From: Bacteroidota bacterium
GTDB lineage: Bacteria; Bacteroidota; Bacteroidia; Bacteroidales; UBA10428
Direction: 5' to 3'
DNA length: 64,000 bases
NCBI GenBank assembly: GCA_023442525.1
Contig: JAEZZA010000004.1
Coordinates: forward strand, 32,052-96,051
Under the pieces are notes generated by a model that had not been told where the DNA came from, did no database searches, and worked only from the letters and a program-made list of their open reading frames with translations. Made by a program: the position numbers and the translations under genes. Positions 1-26,851 of the stretch are shown one piece after another. The number at the start of each line of letters is the position of its first letter. Positions within the stretch are counted from its first letter, which is position 1.

Positions 1-784
1 CTTTTCCTTTCATAATCAGCCGTTCGATGGAATCGCGGTGAGTAACCCTCACCACGTCCTGATCGATAATGGGACCGGCATCCAGGTCGCAGGTAACATA
101 ATGACTTGTAGCACCAATAATTTTGACGCCTCTCTCATAGGCCGAATGGTAAGGCTTTGCTCCCGGAAAAGCCGGTAAAAACGAATGATGTATGTTGATA
201 ATCTCATTCGGATAAACACTTATGAATTTCTCACTGAGTACCTGCATGTACCGGGCAAGCACAATAAAATCCACCTTGTGCTTTTTGAGCAGTTCGAGTT
301 CGACTTTTTCTTTTTCTGCTTTGTTCCCGGCATTCTTTTCGATATGGTAAAAAGGAATATTAAACTGCCGGGCAACAGGTTCCAGATCGGTATGATTACT
401 TATGACCAGAGGAATATCCACCTCCCATTCACCTGCATATACTCTGGATAAAATATCATACAGGCAATGCGACATTTTTGAGACGAAGATGGCCATGCGG
501 GGTTGCCTGTTGCTGAAATAGAGCTTCCATGTCATCTTGTATCTTTCAGCGATCAGTGTACCGAAATAATCCGCCAGTTTTTTTTCAGGGATCGTGAAAC
601 CCTCCATTTCCCATTCCACACGCATGTAAAATGTATTGTCAAGCCGGTCGACGTGTTCATCGAGAGTGATGATGTTCCCGTTATTGTCGTTTATAAAAGC
701 CGTGATCACCGCAACAATTCCCTTGCTGTCGGGACAGTGTATAAGCAGGATGGCTGAGTTTTTATTTCTGCGCGTAAGTGTCAT
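1..784 (-). CDS. purU: Formyltetrahydrofolate deformylase, C-terminal end cut by window edge
   Basis: Not in the ORF track because it runs off the window. My minus-strand translation from ATG 784-782 reads [46 protein letters not shown] (ACT-like N-terminus), then [50 protein letters not shown] (formyltransferase core). The start overlaps the hisB stop as ATGA (781-784). Confidence 0.8.
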
Positions 785-1905
785 AGCATTCCTTTTGTTG
801 AAGGCAGGGATGTATCAAGAACATTTCGCCGGACGGCCATTTTTATGGATTTAGCCAGGGCTTTGAATATGGCCTCGATTTTGTGGTGCTCGTTATTTCC
901 CCGGGCTAAAATATTGAGGTTACATTTTGCTGAATCTGAAAACGATTTGAAAAAATGCATGAACATCTCGGTGGGCATCTCTCCGATTTTTTCCCTGGTG
1001 AATTCGGCATCCCACACAAGCCACGGGCGCCCGCCGAAATCAATCAAAACCTGGGCCATACAATCGTCCATCGGCAGGGCGAATCCATATCGTTCAATGC
1101 CGGTTTTATTGCCGAGTGCCCGGTAAAAGCATTCACCAAGAGCCAGGGCTGTGTCTTCAATAGTATGATGCTCATCCACGTGAAGATCACCCTCGACCCT
1201 TACAACCAGGTCGCAGCCCGAATGCCGTGCAAGCTGGCTGATCATGTGATCAAAAAAACCGAGACCCGTGGATATGTCATATTTTCCGGATCCGTCGAGG
1301 TTCAGCTCAACGGCGATTTTGGTTTCCGCTGTGTTACGCTCTACACGGGTTTTGCGAATCTCTCTTGAAACCAGTTCGAAAATTTCATCCCAGCTTTGTA
1401 CCAACCATTCTGTCTCAATTCCCGATACATTCAGTTCGCCCTGGGAATGATCATCGCCGGGTGCGTATAGAATTCCTTTTGTGCCCAGGTTTCGCGCAAG
1501 CCGGATATCTGTAAACCTGTCGCCTATTACATAAGAATTCTTAAGATCATAATCTCCGCTGAGATACCGGGTAAGCATGCCAATTCCGGGTTTTCGCGTC
1601 GGCGCGTTATCCGAAGGCATTGAACGGTCGATCAGAATATCATCAAATTCAATTCCTTCGTTCTGAAATGCCTTTAACATTTTCGACTGAACAATCCGGA
1701 ACGATTCTACGGGATAGCCTGCCGTACCCAGACCGTCCTGGTTGGATACAATTACCAGCTCGTAATCGAGCAACTTTCGTATTTGGTAAAGGTTACGGAA
1801 TACACCGGGCTTATATTCAAGCTTTTCAAGAGAGTCGACCTGGAAATCAACCGGTGGCTCTTCGATCAGCGTTCCGTCACGATCGATGAAGAGGGCTTTT
1901 TTCAT
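781..1905 (-). CDS. hisB: Bifunctional histidinol-phosphatase / imidazoleglycerol-phosphate dehydratase
   Basis: N-terminal HAD phosphatase ([15 protein letters not shown]) is fused to an IGPD domain ([26 protein letters not shown]). Start placed at [11 protein letters not shown] (ATG 1905-1903). The track start at 1959 adds 18 unconserved-looking residues. Confidence 0.9.
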
Positions 1906-1978
1906 ATTGTTTGGGACTAATGGACATTTGAAACATTTGTAAATTAATACTGCAACCAATTGGCCTGAAACATAATAC

Positions 1979-3010
1979 CTAGTACTGTTCCAGGTAATTC
2001 AGCAACAAACGGTTCTCCTCCGGAGATCCAACGGTAATCCGTAAAAATCCTTCACACAGGGCCACTTTCGAGCGGTCGCGTACAATCACCTTTTTACAGA
2101 TCAGATAATTAAACACTTCCTGGGGATTGTCAAATTTCACCATCAGAAAATTCGCATCGCTGGGTAAGATCTTTTTTACCATGGGCAAACGGGTAAGTTC
2201 TTTAACCAGGTATTGACGTTCATGTAAGATATCCCTGATCCATTTTTCTACTCCCGCTGTATTCGAAAGGCATTCCATCGCCGTTTTCTGTGTGAGAATA
2301 TTGATGTTATACGGATACTTGATCTTATTCAAAACCTGGATAATCTCTCTTGCTGCGTATGCCAGTCCCAACCGGATGCCTGCCATTCCCCATGCCTTGC
2401 TGAATGTCTGAAGTATTACCAGGTTCAGGAATTCTCCAAGACGGTCGCTCAGCGAAGATTCCTTTGAAAAATCAATATAAGCCTCATCAACCACTACCAA
2501 TCCGTTAAAGGATCTTACCAGCTGCAGAACCGCATCCCGGTTCAGGCTGTTTGATGTAGGATTATTGGGCGAACAAAGGAAAAGGATTTTACTGTTTTCA
2601 TCAGATGCGGATAACATGGCACTGGCATCGGGCTGATAATCGGCATCGAGCAGTACCTCGCGGATCTCAACATTATTTACGTTTGCACATACCTTATACA
2701 TTCCGTAAGTAGGCTTAATGCTCACAATGTTGTCGTGCATGGGTTCACAGAAAGCCCTTATGAGAAGGTCTATGGCTTCATCGCTGCCGTTTCCGAGAAA
2801 AATATTCTCAACCGGAACATTTTTCACTTCCGAAATCTTCTTTTTCAGTTTTAGCTGTTGCGGATCGGGATACCGGTTCAGCGGATTGTTGAATGGATTT
2901 TCATTGGCATCGAGAAATACTGCTTCCTCGCCTTTGTATTCGTCACGTGCCGAAGAGTAGGGGACCATTTCCCTGATGTTCTTCCTGATTAGTTTATTAA
3001 TATCCGGCAT
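1979..3010 (-). CDS. hisC: Histidinol-phosphate aminotransferase
   Basis: 343 aa class I/II aminotransferase with PLP-lysine context [15 protein letters not shown] and the SPNNPTSN motif. It sits between hisD and hisB. Confidence 0.9.
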
Positions 3011-3025
3011 ATTTGTTTCTGTGCA

Positions 3026-4300
3026 TTATTTGATTCTGATGGCAACCGCATTTTTATGCGCTTCAAGATTTTCGGTTTCTGCCATTTTCATTATGGCACT
3101 GCCGATATTCATAAGACCTTCACGCGTTAATTCCTGGAATGTGATCTTTTTAATGAACGAATCAAGATTTACTCCGCTGTACGCCTTGGCATATCCGCTG
3201 GTTGGCAGAGTGTGGTTAGTTCCTGAAGCATAATCTCCCGCGCTTTCAGTCGACCAGTGTCCAATGAATACCGACCCTGCATTGACGATTTTTGCCGACA
3301 ATTCAGGGGCATTATCTGTGGAAATGATCAGGTGCTCGGGCGCGTAATCATTCACCATCTCCATGATTTCGTCATAATTGCCGAGTACAAAACAACGGCT
3401 GTTTTTGAGCGAGGCCACAGCTATATCCCTACGGGGCAACAATTCAACCTGCCGTTTAACTTCGCTTACTACAGCCTCAGCGATCTTTTCGTTATTGCTG
3501 AACAGCAAAACCTGGCTGTCGGTTCCATGTTCAGCCTGCGATAACAGATCGGCAGCTACAAAGGATGGATTGGACGATTCATCGGCCACTACGGCAAGTT
3601 CTGAGGGCCCCGCAGGCATATCTATTGCCACCAGTCCCCTCGAAACAACCTGCTTGGCAGCAGTGACATATTGATTTCCGGGGCCGAATATCTTGTATAC
3701 TTTTGGGATAGTTTGTGTACCATAAGCCATGGCAGCTATGGCCTGGGCTCCTCCAACTTTAAATATTCTTTTTATCCCTGAAACCTTTGCAGAATATAGC
3801 ACTGCGGGATGAATACTGCCATCTGCCGATGGCGGAGTGCATAGTACGATTTCTTTGCATCCTGCAATGCGGGCGGGAATAGCCAGCATGAGGACTGTTG
3901 AAAATAACGGTGCCGTTCCGCCGGGAATGTAAAATCCGACCTTTTCAATCGCCAGGCTTTTCTGCCAGCAACTTACTCCCGGGTCTGTAATTACACGGTT
4001 GCCGGCTGAAACCTGCATAGTATGAAAGGCCTCAATATTGTCGCTTGCCTGTTTAATTGCATTTTTGAGCTCCTGATCTACGGATTTTTCTGCATTCTGA
4101 TATTCCGTTTCTGTAACTTCGAACGATTGCAGAAGCACTTTATCAAATTTCAGGGAATATTCTCTGACAGCATCATCTCCTCTCATCCGTACTGCTTCGA
4201 TAATGGGCGATACCAATGCATCTATATCGGCACTGCCGAGCAACGGTCGTTGCAACAGTTCAGACCATTCAGCTTTGGGCGGGTATTTAATTATTTTCAT
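3026..4300 (-). CDS. hisD: Histidinol dehydrogenase
   Basis: 424 aa with typical HisD blocks (IPGGTAPLFSTVLM, LLSQAEHG, GDYASGTNHTLPT), in a his operon context. Confidence 0.92.
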   Translation of the reverse strand: MKIIKYPPKAEWSELLQRPLLGSADIDALVSPIIEAVRMRGDDAVREYSLKFDKVLLQSFEVTETEYQNAEKSVDQELKNAIKQASDNIEAFHTMQVSAGNRVITDPGVSCWQKSLAIEKVGFYIPGGTAPLFSTVLMLAIPARIAGCKEIVLCTPPSADGSIHPAVLYSAKVSGIKRIFKVGGAQAIAAMAYGTQTIPKVYKIFGPGNQYVTAAKQVVSRGLVAIDMPAGPSELAVVADESSNPSFVAADLLSQAEHGTDSQVLLFSNNEKIAEAVVSEVKRQVELLPRRDIAVASLKNSRCFVLGNYDEIMEMVNDYAPEHLIISTDNAPELSAKIVNAGSVFIGHWSTESAGDYASGTNHTLPTSGYAKAYSGVNLDSFIKKITFQELTREGLMNIGSAIMKMAETENLEAHKNAVAIRIK

Positions 4301-4354
4301 AAGAAAGACTTTAGAGACTTAGTGACCATAGAGACTTTAGGGATCAAACATATT

Positions 4355-5215
4355 TCAGGTAATCATCTTCTCTATCGGTATCACCAATATACCTTCAGCA
4401 CCGTTTTCCTTGAGCTTGCCAATAATCTCCCAGAATTCATTTTCGTTTACCACAGAATGCACCGAACTCCATCCCTCTTGATAGAGCGGGAGAACGGTTG
4501 GACTTTTCATACCGGGCAGCAATTCAACAATTTTATCAAGGTTTTCATTGGGTGCGTTAAGCAGAATGTACTTGTTGTTTTTCGACCGCCGCACTGCCTG
4601 GAAACGGAACAAAAGGTCATTTAATATTTTCCTCCTTTTTGCACTCAGCTCAGGTGATGAGATGACAACAGCTTCGGATCGGGTTACTATTTCCACCTCC
4701 TTTAAACGGTTTGAAATCAGCGTACTTCCTGTGCTCACAATATCGAAAATAGCGTCTGCCAGGCCGATTCCGGGAGCAATTTCAACTGATCCGCTTATTT
4801 CATGTATTTCTGAGTTAAGCTTATTCTTTTTCAGAAACTTTTTGAGAATTACCGGGTAAGAAGTGGCAATTCGTTTATTATTGAAGTATGAAAGATCTTC
4901 ATACACGTCGGATTGTGGAATAGCCAGTGAAAGACGACATTTGGCAAATCCGAGACGCTCCACGATATCTACATTGCGATCACGTTCTATTACCTCATTC
5001 TCGCCTACAATGCCAATATCTGCGACAGCATCAGCTACATATTGCGGAATGTCGTCGTCACGCAGGTACAGGATCTCTACGGGGAAATTTTCTCCAATTG
5101 AGATCAGTTTTCTCTTGCTGTCCTGGTTATGCCGGATACCTGATTCTCTTATAAGCTCCAGCGATTTCTCGCTGAGCCGGCCATCTTTCTGAATTGCAAT
5201 TTTTAATTTTTCCAT
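4355..5215 (-). CDS. hisG: ATP phosphoribosyltransferase, long form
   Basis: 286 aa. Begins MEKLKIAIQKDGRLSEKS, contains DIVSTGSTL, and has a C-terminal regulatory domain. It is the first gene after the leader/attenuator. Confidence 0.9.
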   Translation of the reverse strand: MEKLKIAIQKDGRLSEKSLELIRESGIRHNQDSKRKLISIGENFPVEILYLRDDDIPQYVADAVADIGIVGENEVIERDRNVDIVERLGFAKCRLSLAIPQSDVYEDLSYFNNKRIATSYPVILKKFLKKNKLNSEIHEISGSVEIAPGIGLADAIFDIVSTGSTLISNRLKEVEIVTRSEAVVISSPELSAKRRKILNDLLFRFQAVRRSKNNKYILLNAPNENLDKIVELLPGMKSPTVLPLYQEGWSSVHSVVNENEFWEIIGKLKENGAEGILVIPIEKMIT

Positions 5216-5231: not shown

Positions 5232-5261
5232 AAAAAAGGGGTTTGCAGTATTGCAAACCCC
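5232..5261 (-). terminator. Intrinsic terminator of the his attenuator
   Basis: In RNA sense the sequence is GGGGUUUGCA-AUAC-UGCAAACCCC followed by UUUUUU: a perfect 10-bp stem, 4-nt loop and U6. It lies 16 nt upstream of the hisG ATG and 42 nt downstream of the leader stop. Confidence 0.8.
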
Positions 5262-5303
5262 TTTCGATATTATTGTCAGAGACACATACTGCCATTTTCC
5301 GTA

Positions 5304-5345
5304 TTACGGCCGGTGATGGTGATGATGTGTCCTTTGATATTTCAT
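5304..5345 (-). CDS. His-operon leader peptide (13 codons, 5 consecutive His codons)
   Basis: Minus-strand ATG AAA TAT CAA AGG ACA CAT CAT CAC CAT CAC CGG CCG TAA encodes MKYQRTHHHHHRP. It is too short for the ORF track. It sits between a -7-like box and the terminator, upstream of hisG. Confidence 0.7.
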   Translation of the reverse strand: MKYQRTHHHHHRP

Positions 5346-5363
5346 ATTTATGATTTTGTTCTG

Positions 5364-5371
5364 CAAATATA
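5364..5371 (-). promoter_or_regulatory. Candidate Bacteroidota -7 promoter box (TATATTTG) for the his leader
   Basis: The minus strand reads TATATTTG, matching the TAnnTTTG consensus, and ends 18 nt upstream of the leader ATG. No clear -33 TTTG was found. Confidence 0.4.
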
Positions 5372-5412: not shown

Positions 5413-5466
5413 AAGGTTCCAAAGGTTCCAAAGGTTCCAGGGGTTCCAGGGGTCCCAGGGGTTTCG
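5413..5466. repeat. 6 x 9-bp degenerate tandem array
   Basis: The units are AAGGTTCCA x3, GGGGTTCCA, GGGGTCCCA, GGGGTTTCG. The array lies between the stop of the rRNA methyltransferase gene (5472) and the his promoter. Confidence 0.9.
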
Positions 5467-5471
5467 CAGAT

Positions 5472-6827
5472 TTACTTTCTCTCCAACATCACCACCGTCT
5501 CCAAATGATGTGTATGCGGGAGCATGTCAAAGGGTTGAATGCGTGTGATGTGGTAAACTTCGGTGAGCTGCTTCAGATCGAAGGCCAGCGAAACCGGATT
5601 ACAGCTCAGGTAAATCACCTTCCGCGCGCCGGAGGCATTAATGGTTTTTTTAATTTCAATAAGAGTGCCCGAACGCGGGGGATCCAGAACGATCAAATCA
5701 GGAGAACCGTTTTCACGCAGAAAGCCGGTGGTAAATGTTTTTAGTATATCACCCTGAATAAAATGGGTATTCTTAAGATTATTCATTTCTGCATTGGCCC
5801 TTGCATCTTCAATTGCCTGTGCCGATCCTTCGATACCCGTCACATGTCCCGCATCTTTAGCCAGGTAGTGTGCAATAGTGCCGACTCCGGTATACAGATC
5901 CACAACTTTGTCGTTTTTGCCCGCCTGCGCCCATTCGCGGATCGTCTGGAAAATATTCCCGGCCTGAGCTACATTGGGCTGGAAAAAAGATGAAGCATGT
6001 ATCCGGAATTTGAACTCCCCTGATGTTTCCATGATATAGGGCTGAGTTCCCTTAAAAGTGCAGATCTCGCCATGTAGCTGGCTATGCCTGGGTGATAGAT
6101 GAACCGTATAATTTAAGGATACAATCTGTTTGAATTTTTTCATCAGATCGGTCATCAGTTTTTCACGCAGTCCGGGGTCGTCGCGATGCAATCCCAGGAC
6201 AAGCATGATCTGGCCGTCTTTATTGATACGGATGGATAGACTTCTTAAAAACCCTGAATCAGCCTGTGCATCGTAATATTCAACACTTCTCGAATAGGAG
6301 TATGCCTTAATAAACTCACAAATTGCACGTGACATCCTCGGTTGCAGATAGCATTCAAGTATATCATTCACCGATTTTGAATCTTCCGAACTATGGAACC
6401 CCAGTATGTCAGGTGCAGAAAAGGAATATTCCATCCGGTGTCTGTAGAAATGAAGCATCGGTGAAGGAATTACCTTTGGTATATCCGTAAACGGAATGTT
6501 GTATTTTTTTAACGCGTTAACAAGTATTTCGGATTTCAGAGTGAGCTGATTCGAATATTCAATATGCTGCCAGGGGCATCCCCCGCACTCTTTTGAATGT
6601 ATACAATAAGGATAGATCCGGAATTTCGAAGGCAATAAGATCCGGGCAATTGAACCGGTCCGGAATCCCAGCTTCCTGCGCTGAGTTGTAAATAATACTT
6701 CCTCGCCGGGAATTCCATTATCCATAAATACGTTTTTCTCATCGTGTATTGCCATGCAACGTCCCGACGAATGTATTTGTACAAGCTTAACCGGCCCTTT
6801 TACCGTTTTTCTTTGAAAATCAGACAT
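5472..6827 (-). CDS. rlmD: 23S rRNA (uracil-C5)-methyltransferase, RumA/RlmD family
   Basis: 451 aa. N-terminal TRAM-like region plus Cys cluster (CIHSKECGGCPWQH). SAM methyltransferase fold (VDLYTGVGTIA, LDPPRSG) with catalytic Cys context YLSCNP. Confidence 0.75.
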   Translation of the reverse strand: MSDFQRKTVKGPVKLVQIHSSGRCMAIHDEKNVFMDNGIPGEEVLFTTQRRKLGFRTGSIARILLPSKFRIYPYCIHSKECGGCPWQHIEYSNQLTLKSEILVNALKKYNIPFTDIPKVIPSPMLHFYRHRMEYSFSAPDILGFHSSEDSKSVNDILECYLQPRMSRAICEFIKAYSYSRSVEYYDAQADSGFLRSLSIRINKDGQIMLVLGLHRDDPGLREKLMTDLMKKFKQIVSLNYTVHLSPRHSQLHGEICTFKGTQPYIMETSGEFKFRIHASSFFQPNVAQAGNIFQTIREWAQAGKNDKVVDLYTGVGTIAHYLAKDAGHVTGIEGSAQAIEDARANAEMNNLKNTHFIQGDILKTFTTGFLRENGSPDLIVLDPPRSGTLIEIKKTINASGARKVIYLSCNPVSLAFDLKQLTEVYHITRIQPFDMLPHTHHLETVVMLERK

Positions 6828-8061: not shown

Positions 8062-8979
8062 ATGGGTAAAAAAGTATTGGTCGTTTATTACTCACAAACC
8101 GGACAGCTCAGAGAAATAACGGATACTATTACCAGCGCCTTGTCGGCCGCTGACGGTATTACTGTGACTTATGAAGAACTGAATCCCGATCCGCCCTTTC
8201 CGTTTCCATGGTCATCCGATCAGTTTTTTCAGGCTATGCCGGAATCAGTAAAAGGAATTCCCTGTAAACTGGAGCCATTAAAGGTTAATCCCGATGAAAA
8301 TTTCGATCTCATTATCCTTGCCTGGCAACCCTGGTACCTTTCACCTTCGATCCCTATTCATGGTTTTATGCAGCTTCCCGAAGCAAAAAGGCTGATGTCG
8401 GGTAAACCTGTAATCACTGTGATTGGCAGCAGGAACATGTGGGTAATGGCTCAAAACAGGATTAAAGAATACATAAAAGCAAACGGTGCCAGGCTTGTCG
8501 GTAATATTGTTCTGTTCGACAGGGCATCGAACCTGTTAAGCGTCATATCCATTATCCGGTGGATGTTCAAAGGGAAAAAAGAGAGGTTCATGAAGATCAT
8601 ACCTCCAGCGGGAGTTTCGGAAGAAGATATCCGTAAATCTGCAGAATATGGAGTTACCATTAAGGATGCTTTGCTGAACGAAAATTTTGATAATCTGAAT
8701 GATGAATTGATTAAGCAGGGTGCCATTGATGTAAACCCCGCCGTTGTAATGATCGAAAAAAGAGGTATAATTTTCTTCAGGATATGGGCAGGTTTTATCC
8801 TTAAGAAAGGGGGATATGGCGATCCGAAGCGGCTTACAAGAATACGGATGTTTAAATACTACCTTCTGACTGTTCTCTATCTTGTATCACCGTTCGCTTC
8901 ATTGTTATACGCCATTATCAGGCCTTTCAGAACAGAGACGATAAAAAAACAGATTACTTTATATCAATCTACCGACTGA
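8062..8979 (+). CDS. darA: DarA-like dialkylresorcinol biosynthesis protein (flavodoxin-like N-terminus, C-terminal membrane anchor)
   Basis: 305 aa with flavodoxin-like start MGKKVLVVYYSQTGQLREI and hydrophobic C-terminal segments. It lies directly upstream of a KAS III-like gene, the darA-darB arrangement known from flexirubin clusters. Confidence 0.7.
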   Translation: MGKKVLVVYYSQTGQLREITDTITSALSAADGITVTYEELNPDPPFPFPWSSDQFFQAMPESVKGIPCKLEPLKVNPDENFDLIILAWQPWYLSPSIPIHGFMQLPEAKRLMSGKPVITVIGSRNMWVMAQNRIKEYIKANGARLVGNIVLFDRASNLLSVISIIRWMFKGKKERFMKIIPPAGVSEEDIRKSAEYGVTIKDALLNENFDNLNDELIKQGAIDVNPAVVMIEKRGIIFFRIWAGFILKKGGYGDPKRLTRIRMFKYYLLTVLYLVSPFASLLYAIIRPFRTETIKKQITLYQSTD

Positions 8980-25633: not shown

Positions 25634-26851
25634 GTGCCGAGAGTTTTTGTTACCGGATACGGAATTATTTGTTCAATAGGCACCGATGCCGAAAGCGTCG
25701 GGAACTCGCTTCGTGAAAAGAAATCGGGAATAGGACCGATCGACCTGATCGATACGGTTTATAAGAATGAGATTCCGGTTGCTGAAATCAAACTTACAAA
25801 TGATGAACTCAGGGTGCTGGCCGGAACCGGTAAAGAATTCAGGTCGCGGACGGCTCTCCTGGGTGCCATAGCAGCACGCCAGGCTGTTTCACAGTCACGA
25901 TTGGATAAAAGATCTTTTAATAGTTGCGCTCTTATTTCAGGAACTACTATAGGCGGAATGGATCGCACCGAGGAATTCTATAAAGTATTCAGAAATAACC
26001 GAAGAAAAGGTAAGATCTCCGAAGTAGCCGGTCACGACTGCGGATCAGCGGCAGAGCTAATGGCAGATCATTTTGGAATCACCGGTATAATTTCCACAAT
26101 CAATACGGCGTGCTCTTCATCGGCAAACGCCATTATGCTCGGATCAAGACTAATCAAACAGGGATTAATCAAGAAAGCTTTGGTTGGAGGAACCGACTGC
26201 CTGGCACGTTTTACGCTGAACGGATTTAACAGTCTGATGATACTCGACCGTGAACATTGCAAGCCTTTCGATGAAAACCGCAATGGCCTGAACCTGGGCG
26301 AAGGTGCTGCATTCCTTGTACTGGAGCCGGAAGATGAGGTGATCCGCGAAAAAAAGAAAGTATTTGCCGAAATCAGCGGATATGGTAATTCATGCGATGC
26401 ATACCATCAGACCGCATCGTCGCCCGATGGGAATGGCGCATATCTGGCCATGAAACAGGCACTTGAAAGCGCCGGATTAAATGCGGGCGACATCGATTAT
26501 ATCAATGCCCATGGCACCGGTACAAAAAATAATGATCTCTCAGAAGGTGTTGCCATTGAGAGGCTTTTTGGTGAAAATATTCCGGCTTATAGCTCAACAA
26601 AGGCGCATACAGGTCATACACTTGGAGCTGCAGGCGCTGTTGAAGCAGTAATCAGCATTCTCGGTTTGAGTTCAGGTTGCATCTATCCCAATCTTAATTT
26701 CTCGCAAAAAATGCAGGAACTGAAGGTTGAGCCTGTGCACGAAATTCAGAGCAGCAAATCGTTACATCATGTTATGTCGAACTCCTTCGGCTTCGGAGGT
26801 AATAATTCATCATTGATCATTTCAGCAGTATCCGATGGAAGCATTTATTAA
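25634..26851 (+). CDS. Beta-ketoacyl-ACP synthase (KS-2, paralog of KS-1)
   Basis: GTG start (MPRVFVTGYG). Contexts TACSSSANAI, NAHGTGTKNND, TGHTLGAAG. Confidence 0.9.
   Translation: MPRVFVTGYGIICSIGTDAESVGNSLREKKSGIGPIDLIDTVYKNEIPVAEIKLTNDELRVLAGTGKEFRSRTALLGAIAARQAVSQSRLDKRSFNSCALISGTTIGGMDRTEEFYKVFRNNRRKGKISEVAGHDCGSAAELMADHFGITGIISTINTACSSSANAIMLGSRLIKQGLIKKALVGGTDCLARFTLNGFNSLMILDREHCKPFDENRNGLNLGEGAAFLVLEPEDEVIREKKKVFAEISGYGNSCDAYHQTASSPDGNGAYLAMKQALESAGLNAGDIDYINAHGTGTKNNDLSEGVAIERLFGENIPAYSSTKAHTGHTLGAAGAVEAVISILGLSSGCIYPNLNFSQKMQELKVEPVHEIQSSKSLHHVMSNSFGFGGNNSSLIISAVSDGSIY

Follow-up and report, generated by a model that had tools for sequence, protein, structure and literature searches.

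A probable leader-peptide attenuator upstream of hisG in a Bacteroidales genome, and its relatives across Bacteroidota

Introduction

Attenuators of the histidine operon are given for Proteobacteria and a few Firmicutes, both in a RegPrecise-type survey (PMC3766115) and in a 2022 review of his regulation (PMC9413887), and according to Naville and Gautheret (2010) no leader peptides were known outside Proteobacteria and Actinobacteria (PMC2965389). Within Bacteroidota, the hisG leader of Flavobacterium psychrophilum (THC0290_N_0824) has a mapped transcription start site and gives a terminated, structured 5' transcript of 129 nucleotides (nt), with conditional read-through and maximal expression in minimal medium, and its authors read it as leader-peptide attenuation (Guérin et al. 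2021, ISME Commun, PMC9723704, Table S7/SI D9). Here we describe the leader that precedes hisG, the first gene of a histidine operon, in a stretch of 64,000 nt from a Bacteroidota bacterium of the order Bacteroidales (assembly GCA_023442525.1, contig JAEZZA010000004.1, positions 32,052 to 96,051), which we call the window and in which all positions are given below. In our judgement this element is, with high probability, a ribosome-stalling leader-peptide transcription attenuator that sets the his operon by the level of charged tRNA-His.

Another leader of this kind, the Bacteroidetes trp leader predicted by Weinberg (2010), has been mapped upstream of trpE in F. psychrophilum (PMC9723704). 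It shows that the mechanism is accepted for Bacteroidota. Candidate attenuators in Bacteroidetes/Chlorobi were reportedly mentioned already in a 2004 abstract by Vitreschak et al. A sequence-only reading of the present DNA, which had proposed ribosome-stalling attenuation upstream of hisG, held the mechanism to have little experimental support in Bacteroidota; that is only partly true, as the F. psychrophilum homologue is supported at the transcript level (PMC9723704).

Architecture of the leader

The leader and its operon are read from the minus strand. Inspection of the sequence places a TAnnTTTG promoter box, the -7 box of the Bacteroidota type, at 5371-5364, where it reads TAtaTTTG (TATATTTG). 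A spacer of 18 nt (5363-5346) leads to an open reading frame (ORF) of 13 codons and a stop at 5345-5304, with its ATG at 5345-5343 and its TAA at 5306-5304, which reads ATG AAA TAT CAA AGG ACA CAT CAT CAC CAT CAC CGG CCG TAA and would give the peptide MKYQRTHHHHHRP. The five consecutive His codons CAT CAT CAC CAT CAC at 5327-5313 are the proposed sensor. The ORF ends 88 nt before hisG, and in between lies an intrinsic terminator, recognised by sequence and energy at 5264-5232 and composed of AAAGGGGUUUGCA-AUAC-UGCAAACCCCUUU and U6. The core of its stem, GGGGTTTGCA-ATAC-TGCAAACCCC, is found at 5261-5238, pairing of AAA with UUU extends the stem to 5264-5235, and the T6 tract occupies 5237-5232. 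The gap between the leader stop codon and the extended stem is 39 nt, and 16 nt (5231-5216) separate the end of the terminator from the ATG of hisG at 5215. The box, the 18-nt gap, the five-His ORF, the terminator and the distance to hisG had all been named in the sequence-only reading, and they are exact to the base. The downstream gene, an ORF of 286 amino acids (aa) at 4355-5215, is indeed hisG and matches Pfam HisG (1.1e-48) and HisG_C.

Transcription is predicted to start at about 5357-5360, a position derived from the mapped start of the F. psychrophilum hisG leader 6 nt past TTTG, and this would leave an A-rich 5' untranslated region (UTR) of about 13-15 nt. The region has no Shine-Dalgarno sequence. 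Sigma-70 promoters are not expected in Bacteroidota, and a consensus scan found none of that type on the minus strand. The attenuated transcript is predicted to be about 128 nt long. Two features of the mechanistic class are thus present, namely tandem codons for the end product of the pathway ahead of the operon, and an intrinsic terminator between ORF and hisG. The window also fits the pattern of the Bacteroidota hisG leaders, which runs from TAnnTTTG over a 5' UTR of about 14-20 nt to a His-rich mini-ORF, with a terminator ahead of hisG.

Such an arrangement is far from what chance would produce. A run of five CAY codons occurs once in the 64 kb, counting both strands, against 0.01 expected, and the minimum free energy (MFE) of the 145-nt leader is -39.4 kcal/mol compared to -21.8 +/- 3.2 for dinucleotide shuffles (z = -5.56), none of the 200 shuffles being as good. 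When the window was scanned for mini-ORFs with a run of regulatory codons and a terminator, the His leader was the only match outside a long ORF; a second candidate, at 26392-26466, sits within an ORF of 405 aa and was discarded as noise. The consensus scan reports the hairpin as a terminator of the plus strand only, which we rejected as an artefact of the scan rule that is no evidence on the strand, since the stem is palindromic and the greedy AAA/UUU extension consumes the U-tract of the minus strand.

Alternative pairings

For the folds the leader is numbered from nt 1 at window position 5360, so that nt n is 5361 - n. In the MFE structure a long imperfect hairpin between segments 1 and 2 (1:2; nt 24-85, -16.5 kcal/mol alone) is followed by the terminator (nt 97-126), a hairpin of 13 base pairs (bp) and -19.8 kcal/mol that is formed by segments 3 and 4. 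Segment 1 at 5332-5311 forms the 5' side of this hairpin and bears the Arg, the Thr and all five His codons, and the stop codon is found in the apical loop. Segment 2 at 5301-5278 forms the 3' side, and its 3' part at 5292-5278, GCAGUAUGUGUCUCU, doubles as the antiterminator 5' strand. Segment 3, as obtained from constrained and truncated folds, is the 3' strand of the antiterminator at 5262-5245; it is made up of AGGGG from the base of the terminator 5' arm, GC of the same arm, the loop AUAC, and UGC, with which the 3' arm begins.

The sequence-only reading had pointed out that one spacer segment can pair in two mutually exclusive ways, and both pairings are recovered. AUGUGUC is complementary to GACACAU, which starts at the last base of the Arg codon and runs through the Thr codon to the end of the first His codon, and the two are paired in the MFE hairpin. 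GCAGUAU is complementary to AUACUGC, the terminator loop continued 3 nt into the 3' arm, and this pairing is the core of the alternative structure that takes over as MFE before the final bases of the terminator emerge, provided that the His codons are masked. The antiterminator helix extends beyond what was claimed: GU/GC and UCUCU/AGGGG are added to the named core, and the base of the terminator 5' arm is thereby sequestered. Its pairs are G69-U75 (GCAGUAU) with A110-C116, G76-U77 with G107-C108, and U79-U83 with A99-G103.

In constrained and truncated folds with masked His codons the antiterminator has -11.1 to -12.5 kcal/mol, compared to the -19.8 of the terminator, and these are the two energies that the sequence-only reading wanted compared. 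The antiterminator is the MFE structure while the transcript ends at nt 116-120, and the terminator overtakes it only from nt 123. In the folds, nt 72-81 take part in the 1:2 hairpin as well as in the antiterminator, and in the duplex test 15 nt (5292-5278) are common to the two pairings. The 1:2 duplex of the window, at -17.8 kcal/mol, is stronger than that of all 300 shuffled spacers (z = -3.74). A purely thermodynamic switch is rejected, as equilibrium folds in which the His codons and the bases covered by a ribosome are masked always keep the terminator, and it is for this reason that folds of truncated transcripts were used instead. The model has the four-segment logic of the trp attenuator.

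Conservation among Bacteroidota

The comparison drew on the hisG loci of 80 species genomes and 80 metagenome contigs, each of them Bacteroidota-like; the metagenome scan contributed only three close relatives. A mini-ORF with at least three consecutive His codons is found about 130-170 nt before hisG in 58 of 81 upstream regions (the 80 genome loci and the window), and other loci carry interrupted runs such as HHGHH. When all 147 regions of at least 250 nt are counted, 123 have a His-rich mini-ORF on the strand of hisG and none has one on the reverse complement, and no other residue is comparably enriched in the mini-ORFs of these loci. A hairpin with a T-run stands between the His ORF and hisG in 66 of the 68 genome loci that have such an ORF. 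An alignment of related upstream regions, which the sequence-only reading had called for, speaks for it, with the His run kept and some compensatory changes (see below).

The seven closest relatives all have the TAnnTTTG box, invariably with an ATG 18-20 nt after it, and their leader ORFs of 13-14 codons align codon for codon, as in L001 (MNFSGTHHHHHHQP), L081, L004 (MIYLMVHLHHHHLP) and L002. The distance from the terminator to hisG varies among relatives from 4 to about 190 nt.

The leaders fall into three types. Type A, with 24 loci from Bacteroidales and the window among them, has a terminator of the form GGYYUGCA-loop-UGCARRCC followed by U(n). Type B, with 63 loci from for instance Prolixibacteraceae, Cytophagales and gut Bacteroides, has an ORF that ends in ...GGUAGGC(NN)UAA, or CGGUGGGC after the ORF, and a terminator GGCUUACC...GGUAAGCC, so that the antiterminator strand falls within the ORF or at its end. 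Type C, with 30 loci from Flavobacteriales, has CAGGCG in the last codons and a terminator CCCGUYUGAG.... An nhmmer profile of 18 Bacteroidales-type (A) leaders, built without the clade of the window, finds the leader as its top match in the window (5374-5229, E = 7.6e-11), and a profile of 59 type B leaders matches 5375-5310, from the promoter through the His codons (E = 1.1e-7). The Flavobacterium type C profile gives a weak match (E = 0.11) to the promoter and the His codons only. A C-terminal Pro, which the ORF of the window has, was considered as a conserved feature for slow termination and dropped, with only 11 of 120 leaders ending in Pro.

The switch was tested on 120 distinct leaders by comparing duplex energies with those of 300 spacer shuffles each. 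Pairing of the spacer with the terminator 5' arm, the loop and 3 nt has a mean z of -2.17 (p <= 0.05 in 62.5% of the leaders), that with the His-codon region a mean z of -2.28 (p <= 0.05 in 66%), and in 73% of the leaders the two segments of the spacer share 4 nt or more. Antiterminators in the sister clade (L002, L004 and L082) have -15 to -15.8 kcal/mol (p <= 0.01) and are continuous over 15 bp that take in the whole 5' arm, the loop and UGC. For the six closest sequences RNAalifold predicts the lower helix of the 1:2 hairpin, in which one pair is A-U in three and G-C in three, and a second one varies as U-A/U-G/G-U. Compared to GCAGUAU/AUACUGC in the window, L027 has GCAGUGC/GCACUGC, which amounts to two compensatory double changes in the antiterminator. 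The stop codon is 11-13 nt from GCAGUAU in all six members of the clade, with a differing sequence in between.

Two observations from other leaders may be mentioned here. Three loci (L008, L032 and L029) have two His-rich mini-ORFs in tandem upstream of hisG; that in L008 has MSLQFVHTVHYHHHHAGNGAVCKFL at -319..-241 with a hairpin and T-run of its own, followed by MNQRQHHIHHHHSSENHTRRKIL at -158..-86, and judging from their layout these pairs look like tandem attenuators. In six leaders of the Flavobacterium type (L037, L042, L056, L060, L061 and L062) a conserved (TA)TACTCAGA lies about 20-60 nt past the terminator. It is complementary to the 5' arm and loop of the terminator (TCTGAGTATA) and is followed by TTTTAT, and the larger second hairpin has -15 to -19 kcal/mol, which may be an extra switch or a second terminator. 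Nothing that resembles this segment was found within the window.

Proposed mechanism

The elements of the leader, their conservation, the alternative pairings and the energies are computed, and from them we infer the positions of the ribosome, the timing and the response to histidine. Transcription would begin a few bases past the TAnnTTTG box, and a ribosome would load on the short A-rich leader and translate the 13-codon ORF. If His-tRNA is scarce, the ribosome would stall on the five His codons and cover segment 1. Segment 2, released in this way, would pair with the terminator along its 5' arm, its loop and the first three 3'-arm bases. This pairing would precede the exit of the remaining 3' arm from RNA polymerase, and with the terminator blocked the polymerase would proceed into hisGDCB. 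The antiterminator strand starts 22 to 34 nt past the first base of the His codons, and a ribosome stalled there would leave it free. If His-tRNA is plentiful, two routes can be envisaged. The ribosome may reach UAA, with its leading edge touching the two G-C pairs with which the antiterminator begins and which carry most of its stability, or it may be released, after which segment 1 would pair again with segment 2. By either route the terminator would form and transcription would stop about 128 nt from the start.

The leading edge of a ribosome is usually about 12-15 nt beyond the first A-site base, and in the window the antiterminator strand starts 14 nt past the first base of UAA (13-15 nt across the clade), which suggests that G69/C70 are the outermost bases reached by a ribosome on UAA. 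Stepwise masking of nt 69-71 weakens the antiterminator from -11.1/-12.5 kcal/mol first to -8.1/-8.3 and finally to -4.7/-5.0, and the upper stem of the terminator can nucleate. In leaders with a significant antiterminator the 5' strand typically extends from -12 to +1 relative to the first base of the stop codon, and in 71-92% of them a terminating ribosome covers the whole strand. Among the sequences compared here, the placement of the strand beyond the stop codon is a clade-specific rearrangement of the switch.

The logic of ribosome-stalling attenuation is supported by every in-silico test that was run, and the points that weigh against it have to be set beside this. One concerns geometry: the strand of this clade is found at +13 to +15, compared to inside the ORF end in most Bacteroidota his leaders, and a terminating ribosome would thus barely reach the antiterminator. 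Termination in the presence of histidine is the weakest step of the model. Another concerns energy. The antiterminator duplex of the window (-12.3 kcal/mol) is only borderline against shuffled spacers (z = -1.59, p = 0.073), and a constrained-MFE shuffle test of the same antiterminator was not significant (z = -0.47, p = 0.28), although that test is weak for leaders of the Bacteroidales type and the duplex test is cleaner. The terminator wins at equilibrium, so the model depends on co-transcriptional kinetics, and as the stability of the antiterminator comes mostly from the terminator loop and the first three 3'-arm bases, and not from the 5' arm alone, it would form late. Finally, the immediate clade holds six sequences and the covariation is thin; the upper helix of the antiterminator is nearly invariant in them and the lower helix shifts register between subclades, which rules out formal covariation of the antiterminator in this set.

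Alternative explanations

Translation of the leader could control hisG without the proposed antiterminator helix, through Rho or polarity set by a stalled ribosome, through mRNA stability, or through the hairpin 16 nt before hisG, whose main role would then be to gate the initiation of hisG translation on transcripts that read through. We find this improbable, but it is the alternative that fares best. It would fit an antiterminator that is not individually significant in the window and that lies outside the reach of a terminating ribosome. The base of the terminator and the U-tract are only 16 nt before the ATG of hisG and could affect translation, and initiation regions in Bacteroidota are unstructured and A-rich. 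A strong canonical hairpin with U6 has however no need for Rho, and the variable distance between terminator and hisG (4 to about 190 nt in relatives) implies that occlusion of the start site cannot be what is conserved. Complementarity between spacer and terminator is significant in the family as a whole and in the sister clade, and the compensatory change in L027 points the same way, which argues against any version that dispenses with the antiterminator.

A leader RNA of about 128 nt might also, or instead, act in trans as a small RNA, to which role the His codons would be incidental. Attenuated leaders can be abundant and stable RNAs, and the leader has a likeness to the model of the Bacteroides small RNA GibS, at 28.1 bits far under the gathering score of 115 and driven by the terminator. 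What the phylum conserves is the run of His codons, the reading frame and the position before hisG, and not a seed-like sequence, and we consider a small-RNA role very unlikely.

Still less credit can be given to coincidence, in which the hairpin would be the terminator of the next gene upstream and the His ORF would be there by chance. That gene, which belongs to the U5-methyltransferase family by Pfam, is found at 5472-6827 on the same strand as hisG and has no other obvious terminator, and the hairpin, a palindrome, has a generic form. Between this gene and the His ORF there is however a conserved TAnnTTTG promoter, the five-codon run has the low expectation given above, and ORF and terminator are kept before hisG in more than 120 loci with differing upstream genes. 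Only one of 80 loci, the closest relative L001, has the methyltransferase gene in common with the window, and the ORF and terminator thus go as a unit with hisG and not with the neighbour. As far as the compared loci can tell, the conservation of the His ORF next to a non-shared upstream gene effectively refutes this explanation. As for an untranslated leader that senses tRNA or a protein, either T-box-like or through a His-responsive RNA-binding protein, there is next to no chance of it, for although T-boxes control histidine operons in Firmicutes and Actinobacteria (PMC9413887), no T-box or other Rfam family of that kind is found in the leader even at E <= 10, nor does one reach the gathering score in the window or any of 12 related loci, the gap of 39 nt from stop codon to terminator is too short for a T-box, and the conserved feature is a reading frame with a His run, a start and a stop codon.

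Genomic neighbourhood

The operon that the attenuator would regulate, hisG-hisD-hisC-hisB, spans 781-5215 on the minus strand, as defined by its ORFs and their Pfam matches. After hisG come hisD at 3026-4300 (Histidinol_dh, 2.7e-169), hisC at 1979-3010 (Aminotran_1_2) and a bifunctional hisB at 781-1959 (IGPD and a HAD-like domain). Upstream of the leader, at 5415-5463, there is a sequence feature that the closest relative L001 lacks. Apart from one match with 3 mismatches at 8321-8338 it has no second copy within the window, and it could be the result of replication slippage or an array of protein-binding sites.

Implications

The mechanism proposed here is a textbook one, and the existence of such leaders in the phylum is already recorded in a supplement (PMC9723704). 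What is uncatalogued is the Bacteroidales version, an antiterminator that extends into the terminator loop, and how widely the family is spread. About 125 leaders in three architectures, none of them in Rfam 15, show, as far as comparison of their sequences goes, that leader-peptide attenuation is the rule for his operons in Bacteroidota. We further propose, tentatively and at somewhat less than an even chance, that they form a phylum-wide his-leader family, unlisted in RNA databases, with at least three antiterminator solutions, among which that of the window clade is unusual in being loop-invading and in lying just past a ribosome on the stop codon. If this is true, the decision rests on two G-C pairs at the leading edge of the ribosome, or on fast refolding of the 1:2 hairpin, and the leader would be a natural reporter of how tightly translation and transcription are linked in a phylum that initiates without Shine-Dalgarno pairing. 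Attenuation requires a ribosome close behind the polymerase, and the element is thus indirect evidence for the coupling of transcription and translation in Bacteroidota and offers a handle on it where Shine-Dalgarno sequences do not lead initiation. The annotation of the his operon gains a promoter, a translated ORF of 13 codons and a premature terminator, which gene callers and Rfam have missed.

Comparison with known systems

At gathering score Rfam 15 has no match in the whole 64 kb of the window, nor in 12 representative related loci. His_leader (RF00514) has no match in the leader even at E <= 10 with permissive filters, and neither T-box (RF00230) nor the Bacteroid-trp leader model has a match in the leader or the window. 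The best match is to Thr_leader (RF00506), with 29.5 bits and E = 9.6e-4 in a search of 351 nt. It aligns end to end, with a leader hairpin and then a terminator, but is far below the gathering score of 55 and has the wrong amino acid, and the likeness is only architectural.

Like the window, the hisL leader of enterobacteria combines a short ORF that holds tandem His codons with alternative hairpins and an intrinsic terminator ahead of hisG, and the two systems have the same input, charged tRNA-His, and the same output. In E. coli hisL has 16 codons of which 7 are His, and the enterobacterial his scheme uses six segments, A-F. The element in the window differs in having 13 codons with 5 His, four pairing segments and no Shine-Dalgarno sequence, and there is no detectable similarity between them. 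The trp attenuator of E. coli is closer in layout, with four segments, the regulatory codons in segment 1 and the stop codon in or near the 1:2 loop, and in both cases the antiterminator is weaker than the terminator, which makes the outcome kinetic. Unlike trp, the window has His codons, its antiterminator enters the terminator loop and continues 3 nt into the 3' arm, and its stop codon is 11 nt before the antiterminator part of segment 2, so that a terminating ribosome only touches it. The Bacteroid-trp leader, which we take to be RF01692, is likewise a predicted leader-peptide attenuator specific to Bacteroidetes, but with Trp codons and in front of a different operon.

The hisG leader of F. 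psychrophilum differs from the window in its terminator, CCCGUYUGAG..., and in a longer peptide of 18-20 aa, and the strand CAGGCG of its antiterminator is part of the final codons of the ORF, where a terminating ribosome masks it directly, in contrast to that of the window. Its leader RNA matches the type C profile with E = 2.4e-29. In other respects the two agree: they belong to the same phylum and have the same position before hisG, TAnnTTTG and a short A-rich 5' UTR, the F. psychrophilum leader has a mini-ORF with a His run (MSLNQLHHHHFHICSQAKC), and its terminated RNA of 129 nt compares with about 128 nt predicted for the window.

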